Shown: piece by piece, positions 6,945-24,859 of the stretch
How the letters are laid out: each line of letters opens with the position of its first letter
Numbering within the stretch: the stretch's first letter is position 1
Source of the DNA: Microcystis aeruginosa NIES-2549
GTDB lineage: Bacteria > Cyanobacteriota > Cyanobacteriia > Cyanobacteriales > Microcystaceae
DNA: 32,000 nt
Direction: 5' to 3'
NCBI RefSeq assembly: GCF_000981785.2
Contig: NZ_CP011304.1
Span: forward strand, 3,600,001-3,632,000
The notes under the pieces: generated by a model
Seen by the model: only the letters and a program-made list of their open reading frames with translations
Database searches by the model: none
What the model was told of the DNA's origin: nothing
Position numbers and translations under genes: made by a program

Positions 6945-6983
6945 TGTAAAGCTGGTACAACCTTTTTTCGCTCGATCCATGTT

Positions 6984-8264: not shown

Positions 8265-8953
8265 GTTTCAATCCCTAATAGGGTTTAAGATTAATTGGAA
8301 CCCTTGCCCACTGACGCACAAAAGCAATTAAACAAGTTTCAATCCCTAATAGGGTTTAAGATTAATTGGAACTTTCGCTTGATTGGTACTCCAGACAAGG
8401 AAAATGTTTCAATCCCTAATAGGGTTTAAGATTAATTGGAACTTTGGTGTTGCAAGAGTGTCCAGATTTGGTACGCCGGTTTCAATCCCTAATAGGGTTT
8501 AAGATTAATTGGAACGTGGTATGTGAGCATTACCCATGATCAGGATTCGTTTCAATCCCTAATAGGGTTTAAGATTAATTGGAACAGAACAAAATATTGT
8601 CTATTCTATTACGAGAATAGGTTTCAATCCCTAATAGGGTTTAAGATTAATTGGAACAAGTGCGATTGTGGTGGTCGGTGTTGCTGCAGTGTGGAGTTTC
8701 AATCCCTAATAGGGTTTAAGATTAATTGGAACTAATGTCAATATCTCTGGAAGTTGGCAAAATAAGGTTTCAATCCCTAATAGGGTTTAAGATTAATTGG
8801 AACCTTTTTCGCCATTGTCACGTCTTACACAGTCGATGTTTCAATCCCTAATAGGGTTTAAGATTAATTGGAACGTTATCAGTAATTAACCCATTTAGGA
8901 GTACCAAAAAATGACTGTTTCAATCCCTAATAGGGTTTAAGATTAATTGGAAC
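8265..8953 (-). CRISPR. CRISPR array segment B: 10 repeats
   Basis: Same 37-nt repeat, starting at 8265, 8336, 8406, 8479, 8549, 8621, 8696, 8767, 8838 and 8917. Spacers are 33-42 nt. Confidence 0.97.
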
Positions 8954-10676: not shown

Positions 10677-12581
10677 GTTTCAATCCCTAATAGGGTTTAA
10701 GATTAATTGGAACTAGAGCGTCTAGGAGGGCTGCTTATGGCGTAATCGTTTCAATCCCTAATAGGGTTTAAGATTAATTGGAACACTCGCTAAAGTCTTT
10801 GGGGGGAGATGTAGAAATGTTTCAATCCCTAATAGGGTTTAAGATTAATTGGAACATGGGTTAGTCTGTGGGGATAGTATAGAGAAAACTGGTTTCAATC
10901 CCTAATAGGGTTTAAGATTAATTGGAACACAGACTCAACCTTATCAGCAATCTCAACGGTATTGTTTCAATCCCTAATAGGGTTTAAGATTAATTGGAAC
11001 AAGATCGATCTGATCGAGCGATCATCTTCTTTCTTGTTTCAATCCCTAATAGGGTTTAAGATTAATTGGAACATTTAGTGGAATTGGCTAATCAAGCTGG
11101 TGATGGTTTCAATCCCTAATAGGGTTTAAGATTAATTGGAACTGCGCTTTTGATCTCAATAACTCAGGATTTAATAGGTTTCAATCCCTAATAGGGTTTA
11201 AGATTAATTGGAACGAAACCGAAGATTAATTTTATCAGACTCAAACCTGTTTCAATCCCTAATAGGGTTTAAGATTAATTGGAACTGCCGAAAGGCAAAT
11301 TCGCAACTTTTGCGGATTTGTTTCAATCCCTAATAGGGTTTAAGATTAATTGGAACAAGCTTTCTTTCAGTACCCGGCTCACAAGCCTGAGTTTCAATCC
11401 CTAATAGGGTTTAAGATTAATTGGAACTTATTTGATTCCGATAAGCTATTAGAGCAGTTACAAGTTTCAATCCCTAATAGGGTTTAAGATTAATTGGAAC
11501 CTTCTTGTCTGAGGATACTAAATAATCTAGGTTTTGTTTCAATCCCTAATAGGGTTTAAGATTAATTGGAACAACGGACGCGATCGGAACCGTAACGGGT
11601 GAGGGAATGTTTCAATCCCTAATAGGGTTTAAGATTAATTGGAACAAAAGACAAGCTTTTGGGGACTTGGCAAAAAGCCAAGTTTCAATCCCTAATAGGG
11701 TTTAAGATTAATTGGAACGACTTAAGGCCGTCATGGCAGACCGGGATGTAAATGTTTCAATCCCTAATAGGGTTTAAGATTAATTGGAACGCATTAGATG
11801 ATTTACTGCAATCCCTTGAGGGATTGTTTCAATCCCTAATAGGGTTTAAGATTAATTGGAACGCCGTCAAGGCTCAACCCTGCTAACTGGTAAACTCGTT
11901 TCAATCCCTAATAGGGTTTAAGATTAATTGGAACTAGATGGTTTTTTAGGGTGTCTAGAATACTGTTTAGGTTTCAATCCCTAATAGGGTTTAAGATTAA
12001 TTGGAACCCTTCCTTGCTTTAAGCTTGGCAGCGTACTTGTCTGTTTCAATCCCTAATAGGGTTTAAGATTAATTGGAACCTTAATAGCGAGTCACCCTTG
12101 TCGGGGTTAGTCATTGTTTCAATCCCTAATAGGGTTTAAGATTAATTGGAACGGAAATTTCCCCACTGAGAAAGCAGTCCATTAGCGTTTCAATCCCTAA
12201 TAGGGTTTAAGATTAATTGGAACCGTTGACGGCTGCCGTCCGGGAACCGGCGATGAGAGTTTCAATCCCTAATAGGGTTTAAGATTAATTGGAACAGTCT
12301 TCTGGCAATTAGGCCGCGCCCTAAAATTGTGTTTCAATCCCTAATAGGGTTTAAGATTAATTGGAACCCTCACTTTTATACGATTTTATTAATCAATGCC
12401 TAGTTTCAATCCCTAATAGGGTTTAAGATTAATTGGAACAAATTACGGTTTTTTCTGGATCGGCGCGAAGGTTGTTTCAATCCCTAATAGGGTTTAAGAT
12501 TAATTGGAACGAGATCACTTTTACTAATATCCTACTCCAAAAAAGTTTCAATCCCTAATAGGGTTTAAGATTAATTGGAAC
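10677..12581 (-). CRISPR. CRISPR array segment C (leader-proximal): 27 repeats
   Basis: Same 37-nt repeat, first at 10677 and last at 12545-12581. Spacers are 33-36 nt. It lies adjacent to the leader and cas2. Confidence 0.97.
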
Positions 12582-12814
12582 CGCCCAGTGGTAAAAGCCA
12601 TACGCTATGGGATTTTCAAGGTTCGTATGCGCCGCACCTGCAATAAACCAATCATACAGCAAGTGACCCAGTTCTTCAAGACCCCGCAAAACCTTACGGG
12701 ATAAGGTGCGCCCCGCGTTGGAAAGGAAAATCATCTCGAATCTATATTCCATAAGCTTTTCAGCCACCACATAATAGTTAAGAATTTTTACAGCTACCCA
12801 GAAGCGCAACCGAG
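12582..12814 (-). promoter_or_regulatory. CRISPR leader with a candidate sigma70-type promoter (-35 TTGAAG 12679..12674, 17-nt spacer, -10 TATGAT 12656..12651)
   Basis: Non-coding 233 nt between the cas2 stop and the first repeat. The promoter hexamers were read on the minus strand, and the predicted start lies about 60-65 nt upstream of the first repeat. Confidence 0.4.
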
Positions 12815-13087
12815 CTAAACAAAAAAAATTGTATTATCCCGGGGTAACTCACCACCGATGCGTTCAACTTTACCCCGACAACAGGCACAGAGAAAATAAA
12901 AGCGGATGCTATCGGTATCGGGTTTGATCAACTTACTCAAGCGCCCGCGCAGCTTAGCGTACTGGGTATCGGTTAGATCGCACTCAAAAACACTATACTG
13001 CACCCGTTGGCCGTAGGACTTTAACGTATTGTGAATTTTGGTTCGTCGCTTATCATCGGAAATGTCGTAACTGATAACAAAATACAT
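12815..13087 (-). CDS. cas2: CRISPR-associated endoribonuclease Cas2
   Basis: 90 aa. MYFVISYDISDDKRRTKI..YSVFEC is a canonical Cas2 N-terminus, and the gene is adjacent to cas1 and the leader. Confidence 0.95.
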   Translation of the reverse strand: MYFVISYDISDDKRRTKIHNTLKSYGQRVQYSVFECDLTDTQYAKLRGRLSKLIKPDTDSIRFYFLCACCRGKVERIGGELPRDNTIFFV

Positions 13088-13099
13088 GACCGCCTCTAC

Positions 13100-14104
13100 C
13101 TACTTTAAAATCAAAGGTGGATACTTATCCGTCTCGTCCATCAGATATTTCGCCATTAGTCGGGCCTGAATCTCGAAAGCTTCTTGATAAGTACACTGTT
13201 TACTCATTACCGGATGCTTAAACTTGGATTGTTTCTTCTGTTCGTACAAGCGCAGGAAAATCTGTAATCCCTCTCTCGTCAAGGAAACCGCACCGCTTAA
13301 GGGTTCGGTGGTGAAATGTTCGGGGGTAAGATAAGGATGATTGACCCCATTGAGAACCACGGCATCAACGACGATCGCTCTAAATTCTTCCATCAGATCC
13401 AGTGCCAGCGAGGGGCGACCGTAGCGTTGATAGTGAAGATAACCGAGATAGGGGTCAAAACCGACCAAATTGATCGCACTCTGCACGTCATGGCGCAATA
13501 ACGCATAACCCAGACTCAAAAGAGAATTGACCGGATCTCGCGGGGGGCGACGGTTACGCGAGGCAAAGGTAAAAGTATCGCCGAGAATTAAGGAATCAAA
13601 ACAACTGAAATAGGCTGCGCTTCCCGCTCCCTCTAACCCCCGGAGAGAATCGATCGCCGAGGTTGTTTCGATCGAGCCGATCGCTGCTTCCAGACAAGCG
13701 ATCGCCGTTTGTAAATCCAACTCTTTTCGATCGCGTTGACGACGGAGTAGAATGTTGCGGTAATTCTTCAGCTTGCCGCGGACGAATCCCCGCACTAAAT
13801 GAATGGCTTTCGGGGAATCGCCGGCGGCCTGCCATTGCGCTCGACGAACGAAAATATTTTTGGTCATCTCTGGTTCCAATCTACCGAGATAGCGTCCGGT
13901 GGATGTGACGAAACTCAGGGGAATATGACGTTCGAGCAGTTCGATCACCAAAGCTGGGGATAGCGAACCGCGACCAAATAAAACCACCCCATCAACATTT
14001 AATAAAGGAACATCGAGGATCGTTTCTTTGGATGCTTTGACCGTTAAACGCTCGTCATTTTTGCCGAGAAATGCGTCTTCTCTCGTCACATATACCGTTC
14101 CCAT
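13100..14104 (-). CDS. cas1: CRISPR-associated integrase Cas1
   Basis: 334 aa with Cas1-like motifs (..NSLLSLGYALL.., ..LDLMEEFR..). It sits between cas4 and cas2. Confidence 0.95.
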   Translation of the reverse strand: MGTVYVTREDAFLGKNDERLTVKASKETILDVPLLNVDGVVLFGRGSLSPALVIELLERHIPLSFVTSTGRYLGRLEPEMTKNIFVRRAQWQAAGDSPKAIHLVRGFVRGKLKNYRNILLRRQRDRKELDLQTAIACLEAAIGSIETTSAIDSLRGLEGAGSAAYFSCFDSLILGDTFTFASRNRRPPRDPVNSLLSLGYALLRHDVQSAINLVGFDPYLGYLHYQRYGRPSLALDLMEEFRAIVVDAVVLNGVNHPYLTPEHFTTEPLSGAVSLTREGLQIFLRLYEQKKQSKFKHPVMSKQCTYQEAFEIQARLMAKYLMDETDKYPPLILK

Positions 14105-14109
14105 ATTTT

Positions 14110-14703
14110 TTAGTCTTCCTCTTGATATCGTTGGACTTTTTCAGTTAATCGAGGCAAGCAGCGATCAAACAAACTGCATCCCTTGCAGCGGGGTGAATAG
14201 ACCGCCGGGGGCATTTTTCCCGTCTGGATCAGGGTTTCAACTGCTCGGATCGTAGCGATCGCCCGTTGCCGTAGAGCAAGATCGATCGCCACCGGTTGAC
14301 GCTGGTGAGAACTGGCATAGTAGATATAGCCAGTATCTAGCCTTTTTCCCGTCATTTCTTCCAAACAGATGGCTTGAGCGCACACCTGCAACTCGTCGTT
14401 ATCCCATTCGCCCTTACTGCCCCGTTTGTATTCCACGGGGATAAATTCGCCGTCGTGGGACTCGATCAGATCGGCTTTACCGATGAGACGGTAATTATCT
14501 GATTTAAGCCAGATCGCCCGAATTTGCCATATTTCCTCGCGGTTTCCCGCCCCAACGGTGTGAACTCGTTCGTGTAAATTTGTTCCCTCGATCGTGTAGC
14601 TATTATTAAGAAATTCCCCGGCGACGAACATCCGCCAACAACGGTGGGGACAGTAGGCGTAATGGTTGAGGGCGGCGATCGGTATGTAATCAGATTCATC
14701 CAT
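14110..14703 (-). CDS. cas4: CRISPR-associated exonuclease Cas4 (RecB-like, 4-Cys)
   Basis: 197 aa with an N-terminal YCPHRCW cysteine, C-terminal CKGCSLFDRC cysteines and a PD-(D/E)xK core. It lies immediately upstream of cas1. Confidence 0.9.
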   Translation of the reverse strand: MDESDYIPIAALNHYAYCPHRCWRMFVAGEFLNNSYTIEGTNLHERVHTVGAGNREEIWQIRAIWLKSDNYRLIGKADLIESHDGEFIPVEYKRGSKGEWDNDELQVCAQAICLEEMTGKRLDTGYIYYASSHQRQPVAIDLALRQRAIATIRAVETLIQTGKMPPAVYSPRCKGCSLFDRCLPRLTEKVQRYQEED

Positions 14704-14705
14704 AA

Positions 14706-15539
14706 CTATCTTTTATCTTTAGAAATTCTGCGAGTCATCCCCATTCCCATCGTGGTTTTCCGTCCCACTCCTGCATAGAGGGCAAAGTCCGCCAGTGCAT
14801 TAATCGCTTTAATCTTTGCGGGTTCCACCTCTCCCAAAAGACGATAGTGAATCTCGCCCACACAACCGATCGACTGGTTTTTATAGGCTTCATCGGTTAA
14901 TTTCGTTTGAATATCGAAGAAACTGGGAAAAATCGACTCTAGGGCAATAGAATCGAAGGAGATACCGCTATAGCGATTCCAACGACTGAGAAGGCTATTA
15001 AACACCAGTTCCCGCGTCGGTAAGGCACTATCGAATTTTCCCTGCCGGAAGGTGACGGGGGTAGCGAAAAGGAAATCAAATTCCCGATTCGTTTCCGAGG
15101 CGTTTTCATACAGGTATTGATAAGTACAAGAGTTCGCCCAGGGTTGAACCGATTGCGGGGTGGCGAGGACACTGGTGATAACCAGATCGGCGGAACCGAG
15201 ATGCCAGGGTTGTTTTGGATTGAGATTCAACCAGAGCGGGGTTAATTTACCGAATAATCGGTCATCGAGCAGAGAAATCCGCCACCAGCAGGGAGTTTCG
15301 GGCGCGATCTCCCGTTCGTGTCGCCAGCGTGGGAAATTTATTGTTTTTCTCCTGGACTGCATCTGTAGTGGCGATAAGGTAAAGGCTTTATCCGCATCCG
15401 ATGCGTGTAGAATGTTCCCTAATTCCTGATCGACACTACTGACAAGGGTAAGGAATAGCGCATGAAGGTGTCGTCCGGTGAGAAAATTCGGATAGATCGG
15501 CGATCGGGGTGTGAGATTAAGAACGAGACTATAGGGCAT
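14706..15539 (-). CDS. cas6: CRISPR repeat endoribonuclease Cas6
   Basis: 277 aa with the C-terminal glycine-rich loop GVGRKTTMGMGM typical of Cas6. The start ATG overlaps the upstream stop (TAATG). Confidence 0.85.
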   Translation of the reverse strand: MPYSLVLNLTPRSPIYPNFLTGRHLHALFLTLVSSVDQELGNILHASDADKAFTLSPLQMQSRRKTINFPRWRHEREIAPETPCWWRISLLDDRLFGKLTPLWLNLNPKQPWHLGSADLVITSVLATPQSVQPWANSCTYQYLYENASETNREFDFLFATPVTFRQGKFDSALPTRELVFNSLLSRWNRYSGISFDSIALESIFPSFFDIQTKLTDEAYKNQSIGCVGEIHYRLLGEVEPAKIKAINALADFALYAGVGRKTTMGMGMTRRISKDKR

Positions 15540-16126
15540 TAACTTAATCGGGCCTTGGCAAAAATTTGTCCGGGGGTTAGGGTTAAATCGGGGAGGAGAA
15601 TATCGCTCATCTCGTCATCGCCTTTTTTAATCGCCGGGGGTGCATCGGGATAGAAAATTGTGATCTGCTTGGCCTGGGGATCGACGATCCAGACGCGACT
15701 GACTCCCGCTTTTAGGTAGTCCACGGCTTTTTCGCTCAGGCTGCTGAAAGATTGTTCCGGAGAAATAATTTCGATGACTAATTCCGGGGGAACGGGACAA
15801 GCTTCATCGGTGAGGGTAATATCTCCTAACCTTTCTGGGGAAATGTAGAGGAGATCGGGAACGGGACACCAATCCCGATCGTTTTTGCTTAGGACGATCG
15901 CCCATTCGATTCCCACTTCTCCCCGTCCTTGATTCCAGCGATCGAGTAGGAGAAATAAAGCACCGGTTAAACGAGAATGAAAGAATTTCGGTGACATTTT
16001 CGGGATCGCTTCTCCATCGACTAATTCATAGGTAATATCGCCATCGGGAGGGGTTAGTGAGAGAAATTCCGGTAAAGTGAGGGATTTAGAAGAGATAAGA
16101 GTCATGGTATATAGTGTAGTGAACAT
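15539..16126 (-). CDS. Uma2-family (DUF820) PD-(D/E)xK putative endonuclease embedded in the cas operon
   Basis: 195 aa with YELVDGE.., ..PDLLYIS.., ..PELVIEIISPE.. and ..YLKAGVSRVWIVDP.. motifs, as in the cyanobacterial Uma2 family. Its stop overlaps the cas6 start by 1 nt. Confidence 0.8.
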   Translation of the reverse strand: MFTTLYTMTLISSKSLTLPEFLSLTPPDGDITYELVDGEAIPKMSPKFFHSRLTGALFLLLDRWNQGRGEVGIEWAIVLSKNDRDWCPVPDLLYISPERLGDITLTDEACPVPPELVIEIISPEQSFSSLSEKAVDYLKAGVSRVWIVDPQAKQITIFYPDAPPAIKKGDDEMSDILLPDLTLTPGQIFAKARLS

Positions 16127-16145
16127 ATCCCGCGCCAGATAAAAA

Positions 16146-18881
16146 TCAATCTTGTGTTAGAGCAGAAGTGTAGTTAATAACTACTGATCTATCCTTTGTG
16201 GGGTTATACTGAAGTCTTTCTTGATAGCCATTTGATCTCCATTTAATAAAAACTCCGGGCAAGTCTTTAAACCCTAATTCATGATCGTAGGAATAAGGCT
16301 CAAAAGAATCAGATATGGCTCCCTCCTGAACTGCACAGACTTTGATCACCAGTTCTTTACTGTATGCACATCCCCAATATTTTAAAGGTTCTAACTTATA
16401 TCGAGTTTCTTCCTTGTCGTAAATCCATTCGTACACAGACACATTAGCGTATTGATTTGTGTAATTTCCTTCATTATTCTTTTTCAAGATTAAACGATCA
16501 ATAGAGACTTGAATTTGAGGAGATTCTTTGACAATTTTTTCTAAACTATCACCCTGCTTACCGTCATCATATACCAAGGTAACGGATGGAGTCCAGCTAC
16601 GGGTGATTACTAATCCTTTTTCATGAGCAGATTGACAAGTGAGATCGGCATTATAAACATAGTCTTGCAACAGGGAAAAAAGCTCAACAACTCGATAATC
16701 ATCAATTGTCTGTTTTGTAGAAACACAATTCATGATCGCTTTCGGATCAAAGTTTTGATCGTGCAAACCCTTAAGAATTGTTTTATAATTCTCTAGTTCT
16801 GCCTCGCTTAAAGTATTAACAAATTCAGGAATATTATTGCCAATAACAATGATTTTTGCATCTTCAACATTACCTTTCCGATTGCAACGTCCCGCTCGTT
16901 GAATTAAACTTTCTGGGTTACACAGTTGAGTAATCAAACGGGTACTATTTAAATCACAACCAACTTCGATCGCACTGGTAGTAACCAGAATATAAGCTTG
17001 GTCATTTTCATCTCTCTCTTTTAATCTTTGATAAAGATTGGTTCGAGAATAATGGGAAGTTTTGGGAATATCTGACAAACGACCATGATAGAGAAACAAA
17101 AATTCTTTTTTTTCTGAAAATTTAATGTTTAATGTCTGTTTTATTTTTTCATAAATTGCTATCGCATCTTTAACAGTTTCTACAGAAACGATGATACGAT
17201 GGCTTGGGTTAGAGTTCCATTCTTCAAGTGCTATTGAGGTCAACTTTTGTTGTAAATTTGTTGGTTCTTCGTAAAATTCAAACTGTTTTAAATTAGAATA
17301 GTCTTGCTTCAAAATTTGCTGATAAAAATTATTTAGCTTCTCTAGATTGTCCTGAACATCAATGTAATCGATCATGTTATCCGCAAGATAATCGAATCTT
17401 TCCAGATGATTTTGTGATAAAGTTGCCGTCATTAAAACAAGCGAGCATCCTGCTTCATACAAAGCTTTAACCAAACTGCAAAAGTTAGTAAACGAAATAT
17501 CATCATAGGTATGAGCTTCATCAAAACAAATCAGTGTATTACCATGATAAATTCGATAGGGAAAGATGAATGATTTTTGCTTATCACCATAGCCAAAGTA
17601 TCGATATATAAATTTATCAATCGTTGTTAAAATAATATCTCCTTTGTATAAATGTCTTCGAGAATTATTGCTAGATTTAACTTCTCCATCTAGATAAACA
17701 TATCGATTCATTTCGGTTCCTGTATCTATCACCAAAGACACTTCACGTCCTTTGTGTAGGAGTGAAAATTGTTTTAAATATTTATCGCATCTCTGTTTTT
17801 GATCTTCTAACAAACTTCGTGCAGGTAGGGGTATAATCAGGCGAGGTCTATCTTCTTTTGTAGATAGCATAGCTAAAAAGGGAATAATAATCGCTTCAAA
17901 TTTTCCCGCTCCTGTAGGAGCTTTAAGTATAAAAGCTGGATGCTGGTTTTTAACCATCGTTTGAAACACTTCCTCCTGCATTGGATTAGGTTGAAAATTC
18001 GCTAATTCTTCATACCACCAAAAAATTGCATTTTCTGATTTTTCTGATGGGGAATAAGTGTTTGAATTATCAGGTTTGATAATGGCAGTAATTGCTCTAT
18101 CTTCACTGATTGTATGTTCGTTTTTTTTCCACCACTCTTTAACAAGAGTATTCAATTTACTTCCTAATTCTTTATCTTTTCGGTTTTCGTGTAATTGTTG
18201 GAGTTGATTTTTATCCTCGTCTGACAAGTTATATGTCCACGAACGAAAATTTAAAGTGATAGTTGGTTCTTTAAAAGGATAGGGATCGAGATAAAAAACA
18301 CGGTGGTTGCTATCTTCGGATGTACCTTTAGTTATTGTAAAATCCATAAATGTGCGAGATTTTGCCTGTTCGTCGTCTCCAATGACACGACAAGCTAATT
18401 CCGCTTCAATTTGATCGCACATTTCCAAAATATAAAGTTCTTTGGCGTATTGTAAGGGGTCTTTAGAGAAAATCTTCTGATATTCAGTATCTTTTTTTAA
18501 TTGATAGGTATCCTTGATAATTTCCTTAGTTGAATAGTCATGATGTCCTCTCGCTAGAGCCTGCACCCAAAGATTTTGTGGGTTATCTACTTTAAATCGA
18601 TGCCCTTTAAATGAATAAGTATATTTTGTAAACTCTCCCTGTTTATTAGTTTCAACGCGAATCTTGAAAGTTTGTGGTTTAGCTTTGTCGTGTAAATTGA
18701 TTCCTTCAATAACTCGTTCTAGAGAAAAGTTGCCATCTTGCCATTTTCTGGCTAATTGTCTAACATTACCTACATGATTACCCAGGGGTTGAAAAAGAAT
18801 TTTATCAGGAGCAATTGTAGGTTCGCCTGGAAAAAACACGCGGCCGAATTTGAAAAAAGGTTGAGGGTTAGATTTAGACAT
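16146..18881 (-). CDS. cas3: Cas3 helicase-nuclease with an N-terminal HD domain
   Basis: SF2 helicase motifs APTGAGKF, FDEAH, MTATLS, VTTSAIEVGCD and QRAGRCNR. N-terminal HD pattern, numbered from MSKSNPQ: H36, H64-D65-x2-K68 (NLHDKAKPQTF), H94, H113-H114 (GHHD), D156. ATG 18881 overlaps the cas5 stop by 8 nt and is preferred over the track's 18911. Confidence 0.9.
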   Translation of the reverse strand: MSKSNPQPFFKFGRVFFPGEPTIAPDKILFQPLGNHVGNVRQLARKWQDGNFSLERVIEGINLHDKAKPQTFKIRVETNKQGEFTKYTYSFKGHRFKVDNPQNLWVQALARGHHDYSTKEIIKDTYQLKKDTEYQKIFSKDPLQYAKELYILEMCDQIEAELACRVIGDDEQAKSRTFMDFTITKGTSEDSNHRVFYLDPYPFKEPTITLNFRSWTYNLSDEDKNQLQQLHENRKDKELGSKLNTLVKEWWKKNEHTISEDRAITAIIKPDNSNTYSPSEKSENAIFWWYEELANFQPNPMQEEVFQTMVKNQHPAFILKAPTGAGKFEAIIIPFLAMLSTKEDRPRLIIPLPARSLLEDQKQRCDKYLKQFSLLHKGREVSLVIDTGTEMNRYVYLDGEVKSSNNSRRHLYKGDIILTTIDKFIYRYFGYGDKQKSFIFPYRIYHGNTLICFDEAHTYDDISFTNFCSLVKALYEAGCSLVLMTATLSQNHLERFDYLADNMIDYIDVQDNLEKLNNFYQQILKQDYSNLKQFEFYEEPTNLQQKLTSIALEEWNSNPSHRIIVSVETVKDAIAIYEKIKQTLNIKFSEKKEFLFLYHGRLSDIPKTSHYSRTNLYQRLKERDENDQAYILVTTSAIEVGCDLNSTRLITQLCNPESLIQRAGRCNRKGNVEDAKIIVIGNNIPEFVNTLSEAELENYKTILKGLHDQNFDPKAIMNCVSTKQTIDDYRVVELFSLLQDYVYNADLTCQSAHEKGLVITRSWTPSVTLVYDDGKQGDSLEKIVKESPQIQVSIDRLILKKNNEGNYTNQYANVSVYEWIYDKEETRYKLEPLKYWGCAYSKELVIKVCAVQEGAISDSFEPYSYDHELGFKDLPGVFIKWRSNGYQERLQYNPTKDRSVVINYTSALTQD

Positions 18882-19698
18882 TAATTGATTCTCTTTGTAA
18901 AAGTTCCACAAGTGCTACAGGAATCTGAAGATTTCCATCCGTATAGAAATCTAAAGTGGGTAAAGGATGGGCTTTTTCGGGATAGTAAGCGGCAACAAAG
19001 GGGATAAAACCATTAATAGGAGATCGCTCTGTATCGAACAATCCCTTATCTTCATCTTGAGTCTGATCTGCTGACCATTCATGACGATAGAGATTATAAA
19101 TATCACAACGATTGATACAAGGATTTCGCTGTATTAAAGCTTCCATTGGAACAACAGTTGACGGGTGAGCGGAAAGAATCTTTCTTTGGAGTCGTATAGA
19201 TTCAGATACCTCGTCAATCACCGCAAATCCTTCCTTACCAATTTTACATCCGACTCCTTGTAGGTTAGAAAATGCCTCTAGACTGGACTTAGATTCGCTT
19301 ACAACATAGCCGATTAACTCCTCAGCGATAAAATATTCCCAAGTGTGTAACTGAAAGTTTTCTCGATCGCCATCAATGTATAGTCTAGAAAAAACATCAT
19401 GGTTAAACGATCGAGTTCCTTTGCGATGAGTACGATGGACTCCAGACCATTTATCTAGGACTGGATAGGCTCCTAACGCTATATACTGACGAGGTAGGGT
19501 GAAATAAGGCGGATTTTCCTTGTTAATGCTGGTTTCAGGGATATCTAATCCCTCGCTTAACATTACTATCCGTCGGAGAAACCCAGAAAAAGTAGTCGGT
19601 GGGACGAAGGGATAAGTGGCGATATTGAGAATCGATCCAGGCAGTATGCGAAATGTCATCGCCGCCGTTGGGATAATCTTAAAGGTCAGGCAATACAT
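18874..19698 (-). CDS. cas5: Cas5 (Csc1-like) Cascade subunit
   Basis: 274 aa. The N-terminal ..TYPFVPPTTFSGFLRRI.. matches the Cas5 RAMP signature. It lies between cas7 and cas3, with a 3-nt gap to the cas7 stop. Confidence 0.75.
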   Translation of the reverse strand: MYCLTFKIIPTAAMTFRILPGSILNIATYPFVPPTTFSGFLRRIVMLSEGLDIPETSINKENPPYFTLPRQYIALGAYPVLDKWSGVHRTHRKGTRSFNHDVFSRLYIDGDRENFQLHTWEYFIAEELIGYVVSESKSSLEAFSNLQGVGCKIGKEGFAVIDEVSESIRLQRKILSAHPSTVVPMEALIQRNPCINRCDIYNLYRHEWSADQTQDEDKGLFDTERSPINGFIPFVAAYYPEKAHPLPTLDFYTDGNLQIPVALVELLQRESINV

Positions 19699-19701
19699 GA
19701 T

Positions 19702-20595
19702 TTATGCTTGTAAAACTGTATCGACGAATATTGCGGAGTATTCTTGCAATTTGGCTAACGCTTCATTGCCTATCCAGCGATCGAAGTGCGCTTCTTGAAT
19801 ATGATTAGTGAAATTAGTTTCAGGATACAGTGCCAAATAAAGGAAATCATTGATCGCCTTTTGCGGGTCGGTTTCCGAGGGAGAAACGATTGGACGCTTC
19901 CCTCTAGGAGATAAATATCTATCCAAAACCAGAAGCGGGGTACGATCGTCCGTTTCCGCGATAGCAATTCCTTTCGGATTTCCTGAACCTATGCGAGGTA
20001 ATGAATCTAAGAAAGCATAAGCCACAGCTGAAAAGTCTTGATCGGTGATACTCAGAGCGTGGTTATAAACGGGATAGAGAATGCCGGGTTGATTGTATTC
20101 TCGTCTAAAAGGTGTGGGAGTTTCATCATTTCGATTGACCAATAAAGCGGGGTGCATTGCTCGTTGTTTTTCGACCGGGTAAATCTCTTGTATGGCAACA
20201 CCTCCACCATGAGTTACCCGACCGATTAAAGTCCGTTTTCCTGGATCGAGTGCGCCAAATGTAGCACAAATCGGACAAGTGGGTTCAGCACAGGTTTTGG
20301 GAATTCCGCAGTTTTGTTTATCTCCTAGCAGTTCTCCACTTTTCACAGGAGACCATAGTAAACAACGTCGTTCAACTCCTCGCCGTTTGGTCGGAGAAAT
20401 ATAACATTTTTCAATTTCTTTACCATCTTTTGTACTCAGTTTAACGATTTCAACTAAGTTAACATTAACCTGTACTTCATGTCCTAGGTAAAGCTCTTGA
20501 GAGCCTTCGAGAATGGCATAAATATCAAAATGCAATCTAGGTTTATTAGCATCAGTCTTAGGTAGTCCAGTCGTCACTTTAGATTCGGTAGCCAT
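19702..20595 (-). CDS. cas7: Cas7 (Csc2-like) Cascade backbone subunit
   Basis: 297 aa in the position directly after the large subunit, with an AAGGAG SD inside the upstream gene's end. It has a Cys cluster CAEPTCPICATFG. The family assignment rests on context and a remembered resemblance to Csc2, and it needs an HMM check. Confidence 0.7.
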   Translation of the reverse strand: MATESKVTTGLPKTDANKPRLHFDIYAILEGSQELYLGHEVQVNVNLVEIVKLSTKDGKEIEKCYISPTKRRGVERRCLLWSPVKSGELLGDKQNCGIPKTCAEPTCPICATFGALDPGKRTLIGRVTHGGGVAIQEIYPVEKQRAMHPALLVNRNDETPTPFRREYNQPGILYPVYNHALSITDQDFSAVAYAFLDSLPRIGSGNPKGIAIAETDDRTPLLVLDRYLSPRGKRPIVSPSETDPQKAINDFLYLALYPETNFTNHIQEAHFDRWIGNEALAKLQEYSAIFVDTVLQA

Positions 20596-20597
20596 CG

Positions 20598-21116
20598 TTA
20601 TTTATCTCCTTTAGATGAAAGTTTACGAACCAATTCAGGAAACCGCGTATAAAGAGAAAGTTTGAGATTATAAGTTAAATTCTTCCACTCTTTTTCTTGT
20701 GCATAATTACCTACTTGATCAGGATTAGCAAAATAGGCATAAGATTTGGTGATGTCGTCAGCATAAAAAACAAGCCATTTTTTACCCGAATTATCAACTT
20801 CTTCTCTATTAGTGATTTCTAGCTTATTTTCTAGCATTTTTTTTGCTTGTTCGTAGATAAAGTAATTATCAGGATTGTGATATAGCCTTGCTTGAACACT
20901 AATTTTCTTTTCATCTCCTAATGTCGCATAATAACTAAAAGCAACAGGATCATCTACTTTTTCTATTAATTTACTTACCTCACGTTCTGCATCTTCTGGC
21001 TTCATTAATTTTTTAGCAGTACTTTCTAAAGATTGGGCAAAAGCGTAAGTTAATCCTGTCAATGCGGCCACGTCTTCATATAATTTTGCCCGTTTCCAAA
21101 GTGAATCGATAGTCAT
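20598..21116 (-). CDS. Candidate internally translated small subunit (Cas11-like), in frame within the large-subunit gene
   Basis: In-frame ATG at 21116..21114 preceded by AAGGAG (21127..21122) with a 5-nt spacer. It would give the 172-aa helical C-terminal product MTIDSLWKRAKLYEDV..SSKGDK. Confidence 0.45.
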   Translation of the reverse strand: MTIDSLWKRAKLYEDVAALTGLTYAFAQSLESTAKKLMKPEDAEREVSKLIEKVDDPVAFSYYATLGDEKKISVQARLYHNPDNYFIYEQAKKMLENKLEITNREEVDNSGKKWLVFYADDITKSYAYFANPDQVGNYAQEKEWKNLTYNLKLSLYTRFPELVRKLSSKGDK

Positions 21117-23129
21117 AGTTTCTCCTTGAATATCTTGGATGATGGTTTGCAAATATTGTTCCCTAACTCGTTCCAATAATAAACGGTCAGAAATACTGGA
21201 AGCTTTAAGTAATGTATAGTCTGCTAAGTAGGGTGAATCTTGTTGTACATAACGAATCGCATCTCCTAGTTTAAGGTTAATATCTTTCCCACTGACGATA
21301 ATTGATTGATCATAACCTTCTATCAAACCTTTAATAAATATTAATTGACGGCTTACTAAAACTTTTTCTGTTCTTTGAAGCTGAAGAACAAATTTAAAAT
21401 CTTTAATAACCTCTAAGGGAAAAATCGAGGCAACTTTTGCTAAAGCATATTGAAACTGTCCTAGTTTTTTTGAAGCGGTATCTCCTGTGATTGTTTTTTC
21501 AGAAGTTAGGGCAATGTAACAACCCGAAGATAAATGTACTTCTTTATTGGTTAGCATTCGCAAGTAGTCTTTGATTTTAACTTTCGTTACACCTCTATCA
21601 TCTTGAGATTCAAGTCGTAAGATAATACTATCATCCGTTACTTTTAAGGGGGAGGCAAACGATAATACAGAACAAGAAGAGCAAATGAAAGGTCTATCTT
21701 CACTAGAGGATGATTGACGACGTTGAGACGGTCGCTCGAACATAAATCTAGCTACTCTCCATCGCACAGTTTTAGCATCTAAAGTTACTCCGCAAGAGTA
21801 ACAAAAATCTTTACCATCGTCTCCCGCTGTCCTTGCTGCTAAAATTTTTGGGTTAATCGTTAAAAGCGGTTCTGGAATGGTTTCGAGTTTTGGATTTTCT
21901 AACAAACGATACATCTCTAATATACATTGAGTGAAAATATCGCCACGAGTCGAGTTAATTTGTTCTGTGGCAGTTTTGTTAAAAGATTTAGCGATCGCCT
22001 GAATTGGCTTCAATAGATCTGTTTGTTTTTGTTTTTCTATAAACTCAAACGGATTTCCGTCTGATTCTTCTAGAAATCTCTGCTTCTCCTCGATCGAATC
22101 TTCCTGAAAAATAATTTGTGACTCTATTTTATCCTTTTGCTTCTGTAATTTGCTAACTTGAGCTTTTGACAAACCAGTTTTTCCTAACTGCTCATCAAGG
22201 TTTCTTCTTTCATGATAAATAGCTCGTTGCTCATCTAATAATTTAGACAAAACTTTCTGAAAATAATCTCTATATTTATTAAACTCTTTAGCTTGCATTT
22301 CCTGCTTGCTTTTTAGCTTCTTTTCAGTGGACTCTAAATCTTTCGAGTTAAGTTCTTCGGATTTAATTTGCTCAATAAGTTGAACGATCTCAGTCTCACG
22401 CTTCTCTTGGCGATCCTTTACTTGCTCGAAAATAGCTAAATAAAAAGCCGCTAACACCTTGGCTTGATCTCTGGTAATTATCGGAATTTCTAGGGTGCTA
22501 AAACCTCGTCCCGCTAAGGGAACACTTTTTAGCATTGTGATAAAAGTTTGCATTAATCCTGATAGCTGATATTGAAAATCACCATAGATAGAAAAAATAA
22601 CTTTCGTGATAAATTCTATCCAAAGCTCCTCTATATTATGTGATTGTTGAGTTTGTGGAATAAAAATCTGCACATGGTAATTACTTTCATGCAGGGAAAC
22701 AATCTGATATTTTTTTTGCAAAAACTCTAAAAACCGATCAATCGTGCTTTCATGAGTTAATTTTGCTTGTAGCTCTCCCGGTGACGGTGATTTGTACACA
22801 AGCTGTATTTCACCTATCTCTCGTTCTCGATAAAAAACTTGATTCCCTTGAAACGTGGGTTTAATGAACTCGCTTTCTTTTTGAGGTTGAGAAAGTCGTA
22901 ACTGTCTAACCAATTTAGGACAATCAAAAGTTTTGGCGATCGCTATCGCTCTTGGATCGTCAGCTAAAGCGGAAATCAATGTCGAGTCGGTTTGAGCGAT
23001 CGCATTTGCGGTCAAAGCACTCAATAAGATAGTAATTTCAAGTTCGCTAATTTCTTCCGAAGTCGTAACCGCTTTTGTATCTTGCTCTGGAGAAACATTC
23101 TCGAAAAGTGAAAGTTGTTTAATCGACAT
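20598..23129 (-). CDS. cas10d: Type I large subunit, Cas10d/Csc3-like or Cas8-like, lacking an HD domain
   Basis: 843 aa, first large gene of the effector operon. It has a zinc-finger-like CYSCG..(about 40 aa)..CSSCS. There are only 7 His and no His-Asp dipeptide, and no GGDD motif. It carries a K/E/Q-rich coiled-coil segment. The call rests on position and size. Confidence 0.6.
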   Translation of the reverse strand: MSIKQLSLFENVSPEQDTKAVTTSEEISELEITILLSALTANAIAQTDSTLISALADDPRAIAIAKTFDCPKLVRQLRLSQPQKESEFIKPTFQGNQVFYREREIGEIQLVYKSPSPGELQAKLTHESTIDRFLEFLQKKYQIVSLHESNYHVQIFIPQTQQSHNIEELWIEFITKVIFSIYGDFQYQLSGLMQTFITMLKSVPLAGRGFSTLEIPIITRDQAKVLAAFYLAIFEQVKDRQEKRETEIVQLIEQIKSEELNSKDLESTEKKLKSKQEMQAKEFNKYRDYFQKVLSKLLDEQRAIYHERRNLDEQLGKTGLSKAQVSKLQKQKDKIESQIIFQEDSIEEKQRFLEESDGNPFEFIEKQKQTDLLKPIQAIAKSFNKTATEQINSTRGDIFTQCILEMYRLLENPKLETIPEPLLTINPKILAARTAGDDGKDFCYSCGVTLDAKTVRWRVARFMFERPSQRRQSSSSEDRPFICSSCSVLSFASPLKVTDDSIILRLESQDDRGVTKVKIKDYLRMLTNKEVHLSSGCYIALTSEKTITGDTASKKLGQFQYALAKVASIFPLEVIKDFKFVLQLQRTEKVLVSRQLIFIKGLIEGYDQSIIVSGKDINLKLGDAIRYVQQDSPYLADYTLLKASSISDRLLLERVREQYLQTIIQDIQGETMTIDSLWKRAKLYEDVAALTGLTYAFAQSLESTAKKLMKPEDAEREVSKLIEKVDDPVAFSYYATLGDEKKISVQARLYHNPDNYFIYEQAKKMLENKLEITNREEVDNSGKKWLVFYADDITKSYAYFANPDQVGNYAQEKEWKNLTYNLKLSLYTRFPELVRKLSSKGDK

Positions 23130-23216
23130 AGTGCTGTCCTTCCTTGATTTCTTGTCTTGAGGGAGTAGGCTGAAAAGTGCCTACTTCCGCTCTCTAGAGG
23201 CGTTATTGCCAGGATT

Positions 23217-23360
23217 CTAGGTTAAATCAGCGAAAATTCTGACTTCGCCTTCAGAATCCAAGACTGGAGACTGCCTCAGTTCTTTGATTTGGCACTGAAG
23301 AAGCTCGATTTGGTCTTGAATAATTTCGATTTGCTGGTGAATATCGTCAACATTAGGCAT
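23217..23360 (-). CDS. Small 47-aa coiled-coil protein, first ORF of the cas transcription unit
   Basis: ATG 23360 is preceded by GGGAGG with a 6-nt spacer. The product is MPNVDDIHQQIEIIQDQIELLQCQIKELRQSPVLDSEGEVRIFADLT, with heptad-like I/L spacing. The longer track ORF (start 23426) lacks an SD. Confidence 0.5.
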   Translation of the reverse strand: MPNVDDIHQQIEIIQDQIELLQCQIKELRQSPVLDSEGEVRIFADLT

Positions 23361-23473
23361 TACTGACCTCCCTTGTATTTTTATTGACGTGGGTATCCAT
23401 CTGGGGTCAGCTTTGCTATAATGCAAGTACAGAAATTTTTGTATAGATAGCCGACCCCAAAACGGCTTCTTTT

Positions 23474-23502
23474 AATATAGATCACTGTTCACGTCGTTAC
23501 AA
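23474..23502 (-). promoter_or_regulatory. Candidate cas operon promoter (-35 TTGTAA 23502..23497, 17-nt spacer, -10 TATATT 23479..23474)
   Basis: This is the best sigma70-like hexamer pair on the minus strand upstream of the small ORF and large-subunit gene. It is a motif-based prediction only. Confidence 0.35.
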
Positions 23503-23543
23503 GTGCGAGGCTAAAAAAGCCAATTATTCTCTTAAGCATATCA

Positions 23544-23552
23544 TGGTAAGAT
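23544..23552 (+). promoter_or_regulatory. Candidate extended -10 (TGGTAAGAT) for the mini-CRISPR RNA
   Basis: A TGN plus -10-like hexamer ending about 4 nt before psiR1. A second extended -10, TGCTATAAT, lies at 23414-23422. No good -35 was seen for either. Confidence 0.25.
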
Positions 23553-23555
23553 AAT

Positions 23556-23652
23556 CGATCACTGAACCCCTGATACTAAGAGGGATTGAAACGTCACGAG
23601 TGGTGAGGCTACTGTTTAGCCTTTTCATCGAATCCCTATTAGGGATTGAAGC
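23556..23652 (+). ncRNA. Degenerate mini-CRISPR (psiR1 - short psi-spacer - psiR2); candidate CreR/CreA-like regulatory crRNA-like RNA
   Basis: 23581-23592 AGGGATTGAAAC equals the last 12 nt of the crRNA-sense repeat. 23631-23652 AATCCCTATTAGGGATTGAAGC matches 20/22 nt of the repeat's 3' half. Both copies retain a hairpin. The orientation is opposite to the main array. Confidence 0.55.
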
Positions 23653-23653
23653 C

Positions 23654-23712
23654 AGACAGGGCAATATGCGATCTTTGTCTATGAGGTTGTCCATGCTACT
23701 CTGTCTTTTTTT
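23654..23712 (+). terminator. Candidate intrinsic terminator downstream of the mini-CRISPR
   Basis: AGACAGGG (23654-23661) pairs with CTCTGTCT (23699-23706), including one G-U, and is followed by T6 (23707-23712). The loop is long (37 nt), so confidence is moderate. Confidence 0.35.
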
Positions 23713-23893
23713 GTTCACTCCAAATATCTGCCGTTTTAGATCGCCCGAACTCCCCACAACGATGTGGCGGTGACACCATATCGTCAGTGGTATATCCTCC
23801 TCATTTCCTCTTACCATAGCTTTTTGAGATCATTTATCATTACAATATAGGCATCGTAGCACAAATATTCTAAAACTACAAGTACATTTTCAG

Positions 23894-24751
23894 GTGAACC
23901 GCAAAAAAGAAACAATTACACTGTCAATCCCTCCCGGCACGAAGGAGAAGCTAGAGGCGATCGCCCGACACTTTAACATCTTTTGGGGGAAAAGTCCTAG
24001 TCCGTCAGGTCTAATCGCCGCCATCGCCGAAGGAGAACTGGAGATCGGTGAATCTTTTACCCTCTCGACGAAGCAGGTCGAAGCGATTAAGGAAGCGATC
24101 AACCGTCTGGTGCGATCGGGTCACATCAAACAGGCCCAGACTCTTTCTAATTTTCTTTTAGAAAAGGGAAATCTCTCCCCTCAAGAGCGTCGGGAGATTT
24201 CCGAACAGGTGAGTCAGTACGATCGCGATTGGCGGCTCGCGGTGGAGAGCTATATCCATGACAGGCAAGCTTTTCGGGTAATGTACAAAGATTCTCAGGG
24301 ACAGACCCTAGAATTTACTGTTCGCTCTGCCGAGATCATGTTTCGGGAAAAAGAATTCTATCTGGATATCTGGTGTGAGGAAACTGAGGGACTGTCAGAA
24401 GAAGATAAAAGAGACTTTCCCGAACTTGTTCACAATCGCTGTCTTAAATTCTCTCGTATTCAAAGCCTGATCCCGATCGAAGAACCATGGCGAGACAGTC
24501 TCGATTTTATAAAAGTACAATTACAATTAGAAAAAGACCTCGTGAAGGCTTATGAAAGGAAGGCAAGGGATATCGACGACCGAGAGGTAAACGGAAAAAG
24601 GATTATAACCCGTAAAGTCTCTAGTCATTTTTGGTTAATTCGGGAGATTTTACCCTATGGAGATCGCTGTATTGTACTTACACCAGAGCCATTACGCAAC
24701 CGGATCAAACAAATGTTATTAAATCTTCATCAACAATACGAATCGGGGTAA
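23894..24751 (+). CDS. RHH-WYL domain transcriptional regulator, divergent from the cas operon (Sll7009-like CRISPR regulator class)
   Basis: 285 aa with a GTG start. The N-terminal ETITLSIPPGTKEKLEAIARHF looks like ribbon-helix-helix. The central ..FRVMYKD..EFTVRSAEIMFREKEFYLDIWC..RCLKFSRIQS.. fits the WYL pattern. The C-terminal ..ILPYGDRCIVLTPEPLRNRI.. is WCX-like. Confidence 0.7.
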   Translation: MNRKKETITLSIPPGTKEKLEAIARHFNIFWGKSPSPSGLIAAIAEGELEIGESFTLSTKQVEAIKEAINRLVRSGHIKQAQTLSNFLLEKGNLSPQERREISEQVSQYDRDWRLAVESYIHDRQAFRVMYKDSQGQTLEFTVRSAEIMFREKEFYLDIWCEETEGLSEEDKRDFPELVHNRCLKFSRIQSLIPIEEPWRDSLDFIKVQLQLEKDLVKAYERKARDIDDREVNGKRIITRKVSSHFWLIREILPYGDRCIVLTPEPLRNRIKQMLLNLHQQYESG

Positions 24752-24859
24752 AATGTGCGATCACTGGTCACAAGAATCGGTTATATAGCGGTATGCACTT
24801 GCATGAGGTACAATAGAAGAGGACAATAAATTATAGACCTAGGCAGGAGCCACGACCCG

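Follow-up and report, generated by a model that had tools for sequence, protein, structure and literature searches.

INTRODUCTION

Haloferax and Clostridium provide examples of subtype I-B CRISPR-Cas systems, in which the large subunit is Cas8b. In these systems the large subunit carries no HD domain and is followed by Cas7b and Cas5b, Cas3 is a fused protein, a separate cas11 gene is missing, and Cas1 is of the I-B type. Subtype I-D is recognized instead by a Cas10d that carries the HD domain, a helicase-only Cas3′, the Csc2 and Csc1 subunits, and a Cas1, Cas6, and repeat of its own type. In the I-D (DR1) loci of Microcystis aeruginosa NIES-843 and PCC 9443, 12 cas genes have been described, including predicted cas8a, cas5, cas7, and cas3-I genes without TIGRFAM matches (PMC4428289, citing Kuno 2012). 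Internal translation of Cas11 has been shown for subtypes I-B, I-C, and I-D (bioRxiv 10.1101/2020.04.18.045682). A precedent for the sharing of CRISPR RNAs (crRNAs) between systems is the III-B system of Marinomonas, which uses I-F crRNAs (cited in PMC10212523). Here, we analyze a CRISPR-Cas locus of M. aeruginosa NIES-2549 that lies in a 32,000-nucleotide (nt) stretch of contig NZ_CP011304.1 (positions 3,600,001 to 3,632,000; “the window,” with positions counted from its first letter). At a probability of roughly 80%, we read this locus as a predicted I-B-class Cas8/Cas11/Cas7/Cas5/HD-Cas3 effector cassette on an I-D-class chassis of Cas6, Cas4, Cas1, Cas2, and repeat.

RESULTS

Effector genes matching I-B profiles lie beside an I-D-type chassis

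On the minus strand, the locus reads large subunit-cas7-cas5-cas3-uma2-cas6-cas4-cas1-cas2, followed by a leader and the array (Table 1). An earlier reading made from the DNA letters alone (the sequence-only reading) had called the order of the first four genes I-B-like, and the open reading frame (ORF) coordinates bear this out. Its other statements on the sequence itself proved correct as well. The same reading had proposed a non-canonical I-D system. This was not upheld, since the three effector subunits match CAS-I-B models of PADLOC and give no Cas10d, Csc2, or Csc1 signal. Cas7 is matched over its full length by the Cas7b model PDLC01388 (461 bits), with Cas7d reaching E = 0.025 only, and Cas5 by the Cas5b model PDLC01389 (435 bits, full length) and a second Cas5b model (E = 9e-9). 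The large subunit scores 1,221 bits on PDLC01527 (“Cas8b, CAS-I-B”; residues 28 to 843), a model that was evidently built from this very family. Neither the large subunit nor Cas7 has a match in NCBIfam, Pfam, or the PDB sequences; PDB sequence searches with Cas8, Cas7, and Cas5 returned nothing relevant, and no NCBIfam or Pfam match to Csc1 or Csc2 was found at the locus.

The sequence-only reading had also described cas6-cas4-cas1-cas2 and the repeat as I-D-like, which the profiles and the literature support. Cas6 scores 473 bits on the Cas6d model PDLC02042. Cas1 exceeds the cutoff of TIGR04093 (cas1_CYANO; 421 versus 385 bits) and falls below that of the I-B model TIGR03641 (cas1_HMARI; 163 versus 304 bits). 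The 37-nt repeat, GTTCCAATTAATCTTAAACCCTATTAGGGATTGAAAC on the transcribed strand, is identical to DR1, the repeat that Yang et al. (2015; PMC4428289, Table 3) located downstream of the I-D cas genes of M. aeruginosa. A single base separates it from the I-D repeat of strain FACHB-524 (PMC11855584, Table 2). Of four hallmarks of subtype I-D that were examined, three (Cas10d with an HD domain, a helicase-only Cas3′, and Csc2/Csc1) are therefore absent, and only the I-D-type Cas1, Cas6, and repeat are present. The effector shows the hallmarks of subtype I-B: a large subunit without HD that matches a Cas8b profile, Cas7b and Cas5b in the expected order, a fused Cas3, and no separate cas11; an I-B-type Cas1 is lacking. 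Taken together, these results indicate that (i) the locus consists of two modules of different history, (ii) curated profiles place the effector cassette in subtype I-B, and (iii) nothing ties the cassette specifically to I-D subunits except the helicase core of Cas3.

Table 1. Features of the CRISPR-Cas locus in the window (positions in the 32,000-nt stretch)
Feature	Position	Strand	Basis
WYL/WCX-domain transcription regulator	23894..24751	+	PADLOC WYL models (E = 5e-13), Pfam WCX
Exchangeable effector cassette, ~7.7 kb (promoter region, small ORF, cas8, cas7, cas5, cas3)	16108..23830	-	
Small ORF, 54-69 amino acids (aa), upstream of cas8, between the WYL gene and cas8	23217..23426	-	
Large subunit, Cas8 class, 843 aa	20598..23129	-	PADLOC PDLC01527
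Predicted Cas11 small subunit, 172 aa, from internal in-frame ATG of cas8 (M672)	20598..21116	-	
Cas7 backbone subunit, 297 aa	19702..20595	-	PADLOC PDLC01388
Cas5 subunit, 274 aa	18874..19698	-	PADLOC PDLC01389
Cas3 (HD-type domain, superfamily 2 [SF2] helicase, C-terminal domain), 911 aa	16146..18881	-	TIGR01587
Predicted HD-type nuclease core of Cas3, ~residues 31-176	18354..18791	-	
Uma2-family putative endonuclease, first gene of the downstream flank	15539..16126	-	Pfam Uma2 (4.8e-30)
Cas6, I-D type	14706..15539	-	PADLOC PDLC02042; Pfam CRISPR_Cas6_N and CRISPR_Cas6
Cas4	14110..14703	-	TIGR00372 (167 bits)
Cas1, I-D (CYANO) family	13100..14104	-	TIGR04093
Cas2	12815..13087	-	TIGR01573 (75 bits)
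Leader, 233 nt, from cas2 to the first repeat	12582..12814	-	Inferred from position
CRISPR array, leader-proximal segment, 27 repeats	10677..12581	-	Exact repeat matches
CRISPR array, middle segment, 10 repeats, with an insertion sequence (IS) transposase gene on each side	8265..8953	-	
CRISPR array, distal segment, 79 repeats	1305..6944	-	
IS transposase gene in array	7004-8152	-	Pfam DDE_Tnp_1
IS transposase gene in array	9106-10608	+	Pfam DUF772/DDE_Tnp_1_2

The large subunit and a predicted internal Cas11

The large subunit contains seven cysteines and, as the sequence-only reading had counted and a script confirmed, seven histidines and no His-Asp pair. It has no cryptic HD domain (neither an HD nor a DH dipeptide, and no PADLOC Cas10d model at E ≤ 1) and no detectable Cas10 palm. 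For comparison, true Cas10d proteins from three I-D loci (L063, L064, and L089) score 439 to 1,765 bits on their best PADLOC model. A profile search of 1.84 billion representative proteins yielded 138 relatives of the large subunit. All 10 of the distant relatives tested matched the same Cas8b model and none matched Cas10d; one of them (P0348) also weakly matched two other Cas8b models. The protein carries a CxxC...CxxC arrangement (C443, C446, C483, and C486) in which all four cysteines are invariant in 30 homologues, as well as a long coiled-coil insert at about residues 220 to 355. Its AlphaFold2 (AF2) model has a mean predicted local distance difference test score (pLDDT) of 84 and a predicted template modeling score (pTM) of 0.80. 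Immediately before the first CxxC, an invariant motif, R433-x2-G436-D437-D438-x-K440 (residues 433 to 446, window ~21791-21833; consensus RSPGDDGKEFCYSCG), bears a superficial likeness to a GGDD-like loop.

No separate cas11 ORF is present at the locus. Within cas8, an in-frame ATG about 170 codons before the stop is kept in 36 of 40 homologues, and a GGAG, GAGG, or AGGA motif lies 5 to 18 nt upstream of it in 32 of these 36, compared with 27 of 354 other internal Met codons (7.6%). In the window this start is M672, with AGGAG ahead of it (caAGGAGaaactATG at 21116). The pLDDT of the large-subunit model dips at residues 671 to 673, after which a C-terminal helical bundle begins, and many stand-alone proteins of 150 to 180 aa match positions 663 to 831 of the large-subunit profile. 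From these features, we predict that Cas11 is made from within cas8 by an internal start at M672.

Cas8 also differs from its neighbors in how far it has diverged. Among Microcystis strains (loci L002, L003, L071, and L143) its identity is 68 to 74%, whereas Cas7, Cas5, and Cas3 are 90 to 100% identical. In two loci (L002 and L071), no nucleotide-level alignment with the window is obtained for the C-terminal third of cas8 (window 20760-21613, ~residues 505 to 790), which takes in most of the predicted cas11. By these comparisons, the large subunit is a mosaic and appears to be evolving quickly.

The effector cassette is replaced between conserved flanks in Microcystis

The WYL gene is divergent from the cas operon and forms the conserved upstream flank of the cassette. 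Across this flank (window 24761..23830; positions 332-1264 of the I-D locus L063), the window and L063 are 94.4% identical in nucleotide sequence, and from uma2 to cas2 (window 16108..12600) they are 96.4% identical. Between these flanks, the window has no nucleotide match to the I-D loci L063 and L064, and the corresponding interval of L063 holds cas3d-cas10d-cas7d-cas5d (PADLOC). Because matching flanks enclose an unmatched middle, we conclude that the 7.7-kb cassette has been cleanly replaced. In loci L063 to L068, Cas6 is 93 to 94% identical in amino acid sequence to that of the window and stands behind a canonical cas3d-cas10d-cas7d-cas5d cassette; where the contigs reach far enough, Cas4 is 98%, Cas1 99%, and Cas2 99% identical. 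The I-D cassettes of L063 and L064 show no nucleotide similarity to each other, so that at least three cassette alleles exist. The G+C content at third codon positions is 27 to 33% in cas8, cas7, cas5, and cas3 of the window, compared with 44 to 55% in the WYL gene, uma2, cas6, cas4, cas1, and cas2; it is 18 to 28% in the I-D cassette of L063 and 36 to 51%, nearer the flanks, in that of L064. The low values fit an import of cassettes from elsewhere.

Both effector types also occur side by side. Loci L143 and L144 have the order cas3d, MNT/HEPN pair, cas10d, cas7d, cas5d, WYL gene, 54-aa ORF, cas8, cas7, cas5, cas3, two uma2 genes, cas6, cas4, cas1, cas2, with a single cas6-cas4-cas1-cas2 set for both cassettes. 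Their Cas7, Cas5, and Cas3 are 100%, 99%, and 96% identical to those of the window, and their I-D proteins are 99 to 100% identical to those of L064. The pair between cas3d and cas10d (L143, 1801-2660) is a toxin-antitoxin pair of the MNT-HEPN type (nucleotidyltransferase/HepT). Tandem loci extend beyond Microcystis to Nostoc (L011 and L016), Prochloron (L015), and a Microcoleaceae genome (L025). In M. aeruginosa W13-11 (L001), recombination scars lie upstream of cas8 (6820-8224). They comprise the 3′-terminal part of a cas3 of the Cas8 type, a complete uma2, the initial 11% of cas6, and a piece of cas5d. The Microcystis chassis is thus found in three states: with an I-D cassette, with both cassettes in tandem, and, as in the window, with the Cas8-type cassette alone.

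The four genes named cas8a, cas5, cas7, and cas3-I in NIES-843 and PCC 9443 are, as matched by their description, almost certainly this same cassette. The identification rests on the agreement of those 12-cas-gene loci with the tandem arrangement of L143 and L144 and on the lack of NCBIfam matches here. The name cas8a, which belongs to subtype I-A, does not suit the large-subunit gene, as the locus has a fused Cas3 and lacks a separate cas11 or csa5.

The small ORF ahead of cas8 is kept in all Microcystis copies of the cassette and appears in public annotation as a 54-aa gene of L060, L143, and L145; a weak counterpart is found in Symploca (L038).

Gene order is conserved across about 50 cyanobacterial species

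In a scan of one genome per species, we found 59 loci in ~50 cyanobacterial species. Contigs of sufficient length all show the order cas8-cas7-cas5-cas3-cas6-cas4-cas1-cas2 (33 loci fully covered; 53 loci with this variant only), and all repeats of these loci end in ...CCCT(A/T/C)(T/A)(T/C)AGGGATTGAAAC. The sequence-only reading had regarded the position of cas3 after cas5 as non-canonical for I-D. This position is standard for I-B and also occurs in nine bona fide I-D loci, which have the order cas10d-cas7d-cas5d-cas3d-cas6, and it is therefore not diagnostic. A metagenome search with the Cas6 of the window yielded 80 loci, which were annotated. Cas6, Cas4, Cas1, and Cas2 are ~60 to 70% similar alike behind Cas8-type and true I-D cassettes. 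On a neighbor-joining tree of concatenated Cas6, Cas4, and Cas1 from 69 loci, the effector type switches at least 15 times, against a mean of 22.8 switches (minimum, 16) when the labels are shuffled. These switches mean that the coupling of chassis and effector is only loose. The proposal of an I-B/I-D hybrid or intermediate in the sequence-only reading thus survives in part: an I-B-like effector is indeed joined to an I-D-like module, but nothing found here points to an intermediate: the cassette is discrete in ~50 species and is swapped or in tandem with true I-D cassettes.

Cas3 carries a probable divergent HD-type domain

Cas3, of 911 aa when read from its ATG and 921 aa from an upstream TTG, consists of a conserved 290-aa N-terminal domain with an HD pattern fused to a Cas3 helicase. 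The HD residues named by the sequence-only reading were found again by script (H36, H64-D65, K68, H94, H113-H114, and D156), as were SF2 helicase motifs of Cas3 (GAGK324, DEAH454, TAT485, and QRAGR661). An alignment of 30 sequences (52 to 88% identity) shows no variation at H64, D65, K68, H94, H113, H114, or D156, and at least 90% of the sequences keep H36. The helicase part is matched by TIGR01587 (cas3_core; 153 bits, cutoff 102; residues 317 to 682) and by Pfam DEAD, Helicase_C, and Cas3-like_C_2, and the nearest solved structures are the Cas3 helicase chains 7r2k and 7tr8. The score on TIGR03158 (cas3_cyano), which describes the helicase-only Cas3′, is below its cutoff (51 versus 69 bits).

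To the hidden Markov model (HMM) libraries, 10 homologues of the N-terminal domain were submitted singly. PADLOC PDLC01254 matched 7 of the 10 (best E, 7e-5) and the PADLOC Cas3-HD model matched 2; Pfam HD matched 7 (best E, 4.5e-4), DUF3891 matched 6, HDIG matched 3, and TIGR01596 (cas3_HD) matched 2. The AF2 model of residues 1 to 290 has a pLDDT of 86.6. In its Foldseek search, the only recurrent family was the human HD-domain protein HDDC2 (probability, 0.1 to 0.2), and a profile of the domain searched against PDB sequences gave chance-level matches only. Mainly because the motif set is invariant and correctly ordered, we conclude that the N terminus is probably a divergent Cas3-type HD domain, in which a beta hairpin is inserted between motifs II and III. 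The HD pattern of the sequence-only reading is accordingly retained, its residues being confirmed and the HMM matches, at sub-threshold scores, being consistent with it.

Alternative readings of the locus

Several results weigh against an I-B-class effector with an HD-bearing Cas3. Among solved Cas8 and Cas10 structures, no sequence or fold relative of the large subunit was detected, and Foldseek searches of its full-length model against the PDB returned nothing below E = 0.9. “Cas8b” is therefore the curators' label of an isolated family rather than a demonstrated homology. The comparison that might separate Cas8 from Cas10d is a weak negative: hhalign gave the large-subunit alignment a probability of <1% against Cas10d, and it also failed to join two Cas10d subfamilies (2%). 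In Cas3, the N terminus is not recognized as an HD domain by Pfam, NCBIfam, or PGAP, its residues 31 to 160 match PDLC01254 (a Cas3 model of 164 positions) at E = 0.023 only, and all of the HD and Cas3-HD matches described above are sub-threshold, with none at the gathering threshold. The best Foldseek hit of the N-terminal model in the PDB, at E = 0.4, is not significant. Finally, searches of the spacers against phage and plasmid collections found no protospacers from which a protospacer-adjacent motif (PAM) could be inferred. Weak IS608-transposase-like Foldseek matches of the large subunit over ~88 residues were discarded as noise.

One alternative is that the locus is a non-canonical I-D system or an I-B/I-D intermediate, in which Cas3 has taken over the HD domain of a Cas10d that survives, in degenerate form, as the large subunit. 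Cas6, Cas4, Cas1, Cas2, the repeat, and the WYL regulator are all of I-D type, and one I-D lineage shares the order large subunit-cas7-cas5-cas3-cas6. In PADLOC, the Cas3 helicase core scores 179 bits on Cas3d, close to Cas3a1 (189 bits) and above the Cas3b models (~100 bits), and hhalign joins it to the I-D Cas3′ at 98.8%. To these points can be added the marginal Cas7d match of Cas7 and the invariant four-cysteine finger of the large subunit, which recalls the finger that Cas10 proteins keep. However, the resemblance to I-D is confined to the shared chassis. No Cas10d, Csc2, or Csc1 model matches at a meaningful E value, the distant relatives tested match the same Cas8b model only, and profile-profile probabilities against the I-D subunits are at most 1% (Cas7 versus Cas7d, 0.4%; Cas5 versus Cas5d, 1.0%), weak negatives given the failure of the method noted above. 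The cassette also stands in tandem with complete I-D cassettes, which is the behavior of a separate system and not of a derived I-D. We therefore regard this alternative as very unlikely.

It is likewise improbable, to a similar degree, that the Cas8-type cassette is not autonomous, being an accessory beside an I-D effector or a decaying relic where the I-D cassette is absent. Such a role would suit its first description as four extra genes in I-D loci (PMC4428289), the tandem loci of several genera, and the lack of its own cas6 and adaptation genes. Against it, 53 loci have no I-D cassette in the stretch covered (up to 10 kb on each side) and there the Cas8-type cassette is always followed by cas6-cas4-cas1-cas2. 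The four ORFs are intact with invariant catalytic and zinc-finger residues and adjoin an array of 116 perfect repeats, and the cassette encodes all parts of a type I effector (large subunit, predicted Cas11, Cas7, Cas5, and HD-helicase Cas3).

Less probable still is an N-terminal Cas3 domain that does not act as a DNA nuclease but has another metal-dependent or a structural role, with cleavage supplied elsewhere, for example by Uma2. The silence of Pfam, NCBIfam, and PGAP, the naming of homologues as helicase Cas3′, the lack of any Cas3 HD structure among the Foldseek results, and the putative endonuclease adjoining downstream in Microcystis all fit this idea. The invariant order of H, HD-x2-K, H, HH, and D is nevertheless the Cas3 HD pattern, 7 of 10 homologues match Pfam HD, 7 of 10 match a PADLOC Cas3 model, and 2 of 10 match TIGR01596, and Uma2 is missing from the cas3/cas6 junction outside Microcystis and accompanies I-D cassettes too. 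We dismissed a CRISPR-associated transposon or other transposon-associated I-B system (no Tn7 genes, and Cas3 and adaptation genes are present), a recent one-off chimera (the eight-gene order is kept in ~50 species), and type I-A, as the label “predicted cas8a” would imply (the HD-type and helicase parts form one Cas3 of 911 aa, and a gene for a small subunit is missing).

Array, flanking sequences, and phage-borne repeats

The array comprises 116 perfect repeats in three segments separated by the two IS transposase genes, and the repeats at the segment ends are perfect too. The 113 spacers are 33 to 38 nt long (mode, 34 to 35), compared with the 35 nt reported for I-D (PMC10212523). Between the window and 17 other Microcystis loci, no shared spacer was found that would link the arrays across a cassette swap. 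Searched against phages, the whole array gave matches to the repeat only.

Those matches fall in lytic Microcystis phages that carry copies of the host DR1 repeat. In MaMV-CH01 (PP681321.1, 40322-40443; L141, 601-722), a promoter-like site (TTGACA-17-TATAAT) precedes a perfect repeat, a 39-nt “spacer,” and a second perfect repeat, and in reverse complement this “spacer” nearly matches the promoter region upstream. Ma-LMM01 (NC_008562.1, 35756-35950; L142, ~607-790) has three copies that end in A instead of C and are annotated only as a “56 bp repeat unit.” Judged by their arrangement, these phage copies look like a mini-array or a repeat-mimic RNA anti-CRISPR; in the literature searched, we found no description of them.

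The uma2 gene, which marks the downstream recombination boundary, is present in one or two copies at the cas3/cas6 junction of Microcystis loci only, behind I-D cassettes as well (L063, 8408-9630; L143, 17206-18422; 94 to 96% nucleotide identity with the I-D-locus copies), and matches the PADLOC candidate-defense family PDC-S03. Just past the WYL gene lies an IS630-type transposase broken into two ORFs (HTH, 120 aa; DDE_3, 194 aa; 24860-25826, plus strand). Intergenic tandem repeats of heptamers and 21-mers (ATAACTG, GAATTAT, CAGTAAA, and AACTGAT) lie upstream of the CRISPR-Cas locus at 26556-26629 and 29395-29514. Along 20.8 kb, the window and the record CP012375.1 share 99.5% identity, with 72 mismatches and 6 gaps.

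DISCUSSION

If the locus is an I-B-class effector on an I-D-class chassis, interference would follow the route of subtypes I-B, I-C, and I-E and not that of I-D, in which the HD domain of Cas10d acts with a helicase-only Cas3′. Cas6 would cut the DR1 precursor crRNA after the CCCTATTAGGG hairpin and leave the 8-nt 5′ handle ATTGAAAC. On this crRNA, Cas5, several copies of Cas7, Cas8, copies of Cas11, and Cas6 would assemble as Cascade. Cas8 would read the PAM, an R-loop would form, and the HD-helicase Cas3 would then be brought in, nicking and degrading the DNA strand that is displaced. New spacers would be acquired through the I-D-type Cas4-Cas1-Cas2.

Because the same chassis occurs in three cassette states, it is very likely that both unrelated effectors draw on one supply of crRNAs and one machinery for spacer acquisition, as far as gene content can tell. 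Since either effector would depend on one array and one set of adaptation genes, the PAM requirements of Cas10d and Cas8 should coincide; the PAM of I-D is GTN. A further step, which we put forward tentatively and at somewhat less than even odds, is that the I-D and Cas8/HD-Cas3 effectors are interchangeable and can work together with a common crRNA pool, Cas6, adaptation module, and PAM preference, and that the presence/absence polymorphism of the two cassettes at one locus is maintained in Microcystis populations and in other cyanobacteria. If so, this polymorphism could hedge against effector-specific anti-CRISPRs, and the repeats carried by MaMV and Ma-LMM01 would hint at a countermove aimed at the shared crRNA-handling step. 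The locus would also predict that Cas10d and Cas8 recognize the same PAM and that their Cas5 and Cas7 subunits bind the same 5′ handle, which bears on module swaps in phage arms races. A second effector, based on Cas3 and working from the same guide RNA, could be useful in genome editing that builds on the I-D system of Microcystis.

Part of this picture is already known. The family is covered by curated profiles, papers of 2012 and 2015 noted its genes in Microcystis, and module exchange is an established principle. The sequence-only reading had allowed that this exact arrangement might already be defined; given the curated profiles and the four genes noted earlier in Microcystis (PMC4428289, citing Kuno 2012), that reservation applies. 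In current NCBI annotation, the large subunit, Cas7, and Cas5 are left as “hypothetical protein” and the nuclease-helicase, like its homologues, is named helicase Cas3′, as if helicase-only; it is thus easy to mistake such loci for I-D or for incomplete systems. Three features are absent from that annotation, and no description of them turned up in the literature searched: the HD domain of the “Cas3′” proteins, the conserved internal start predicted for Cas11, and the three-state polymorphism on one chassis within one species. The locus offers a clean natural case in which one CRISPR memory and processing chassis carries alternative or paired interference machines, with at least three alleles in one species.

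Compared with subtype I-B, as in Synechocystis sp. PCC 6714 (PMC11903412), the locus is alike in its Cas8-class subunit without HD, followed in order by Cas7, Cas5, and a fused Cas3, in having Cas4, Cas1, and Cas2, and in the lack of a separate cas11, for which an internal start is predicted. It is unlike I-B in that its Cas8, Cas7, and Cas5 show no detectable sequence similarity to solved structures and have no NCBIfam or Pfam model, in that cas6 follows cas3 and encodes a Cas6d-type protein, in a Cas1 that passes the I-D cutoff and fails the I-B cutoff, in its I-D-type repeat, and in a Cas3 helicase core that fits I-A and I-D models better than I-B models.

With cyanobacterial I-D systems (Synechocystis PCC 6803 and the Microcystis “TiD”), the locus shares Cas6d, Cas4, Cas1d, Cas2, the repeat, spacers of ~35 nt, a divergent WYL gene, and a chromosomal location, and its gene order fits that of the I-D lineage with cas10d-cas7d-cas5d-cas3d-cas6. 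In contrast to these systems, it has no Cas10d, Csc2, or Csc1, its HD domain is on Cas3 and not on the large subunit, Cas3 is not helicase-only, and no homology of effector subunits was detected beyond the helicase core. The loci of NIES-843 and PCC 9443 differ from the window in their I-D cassette, which the window lacks; here the four genes are the sole effector. The principle of crRNA sharing is the same as in the known precedent, in that a common array, Cas6, and adaptation module would serve effectors that alternate or stand in tandem. The difference is that both effectors here are type I systems targeting DNA with unrelated subunits, and that the presence of each cassette is polymorphic at one locus within one species.

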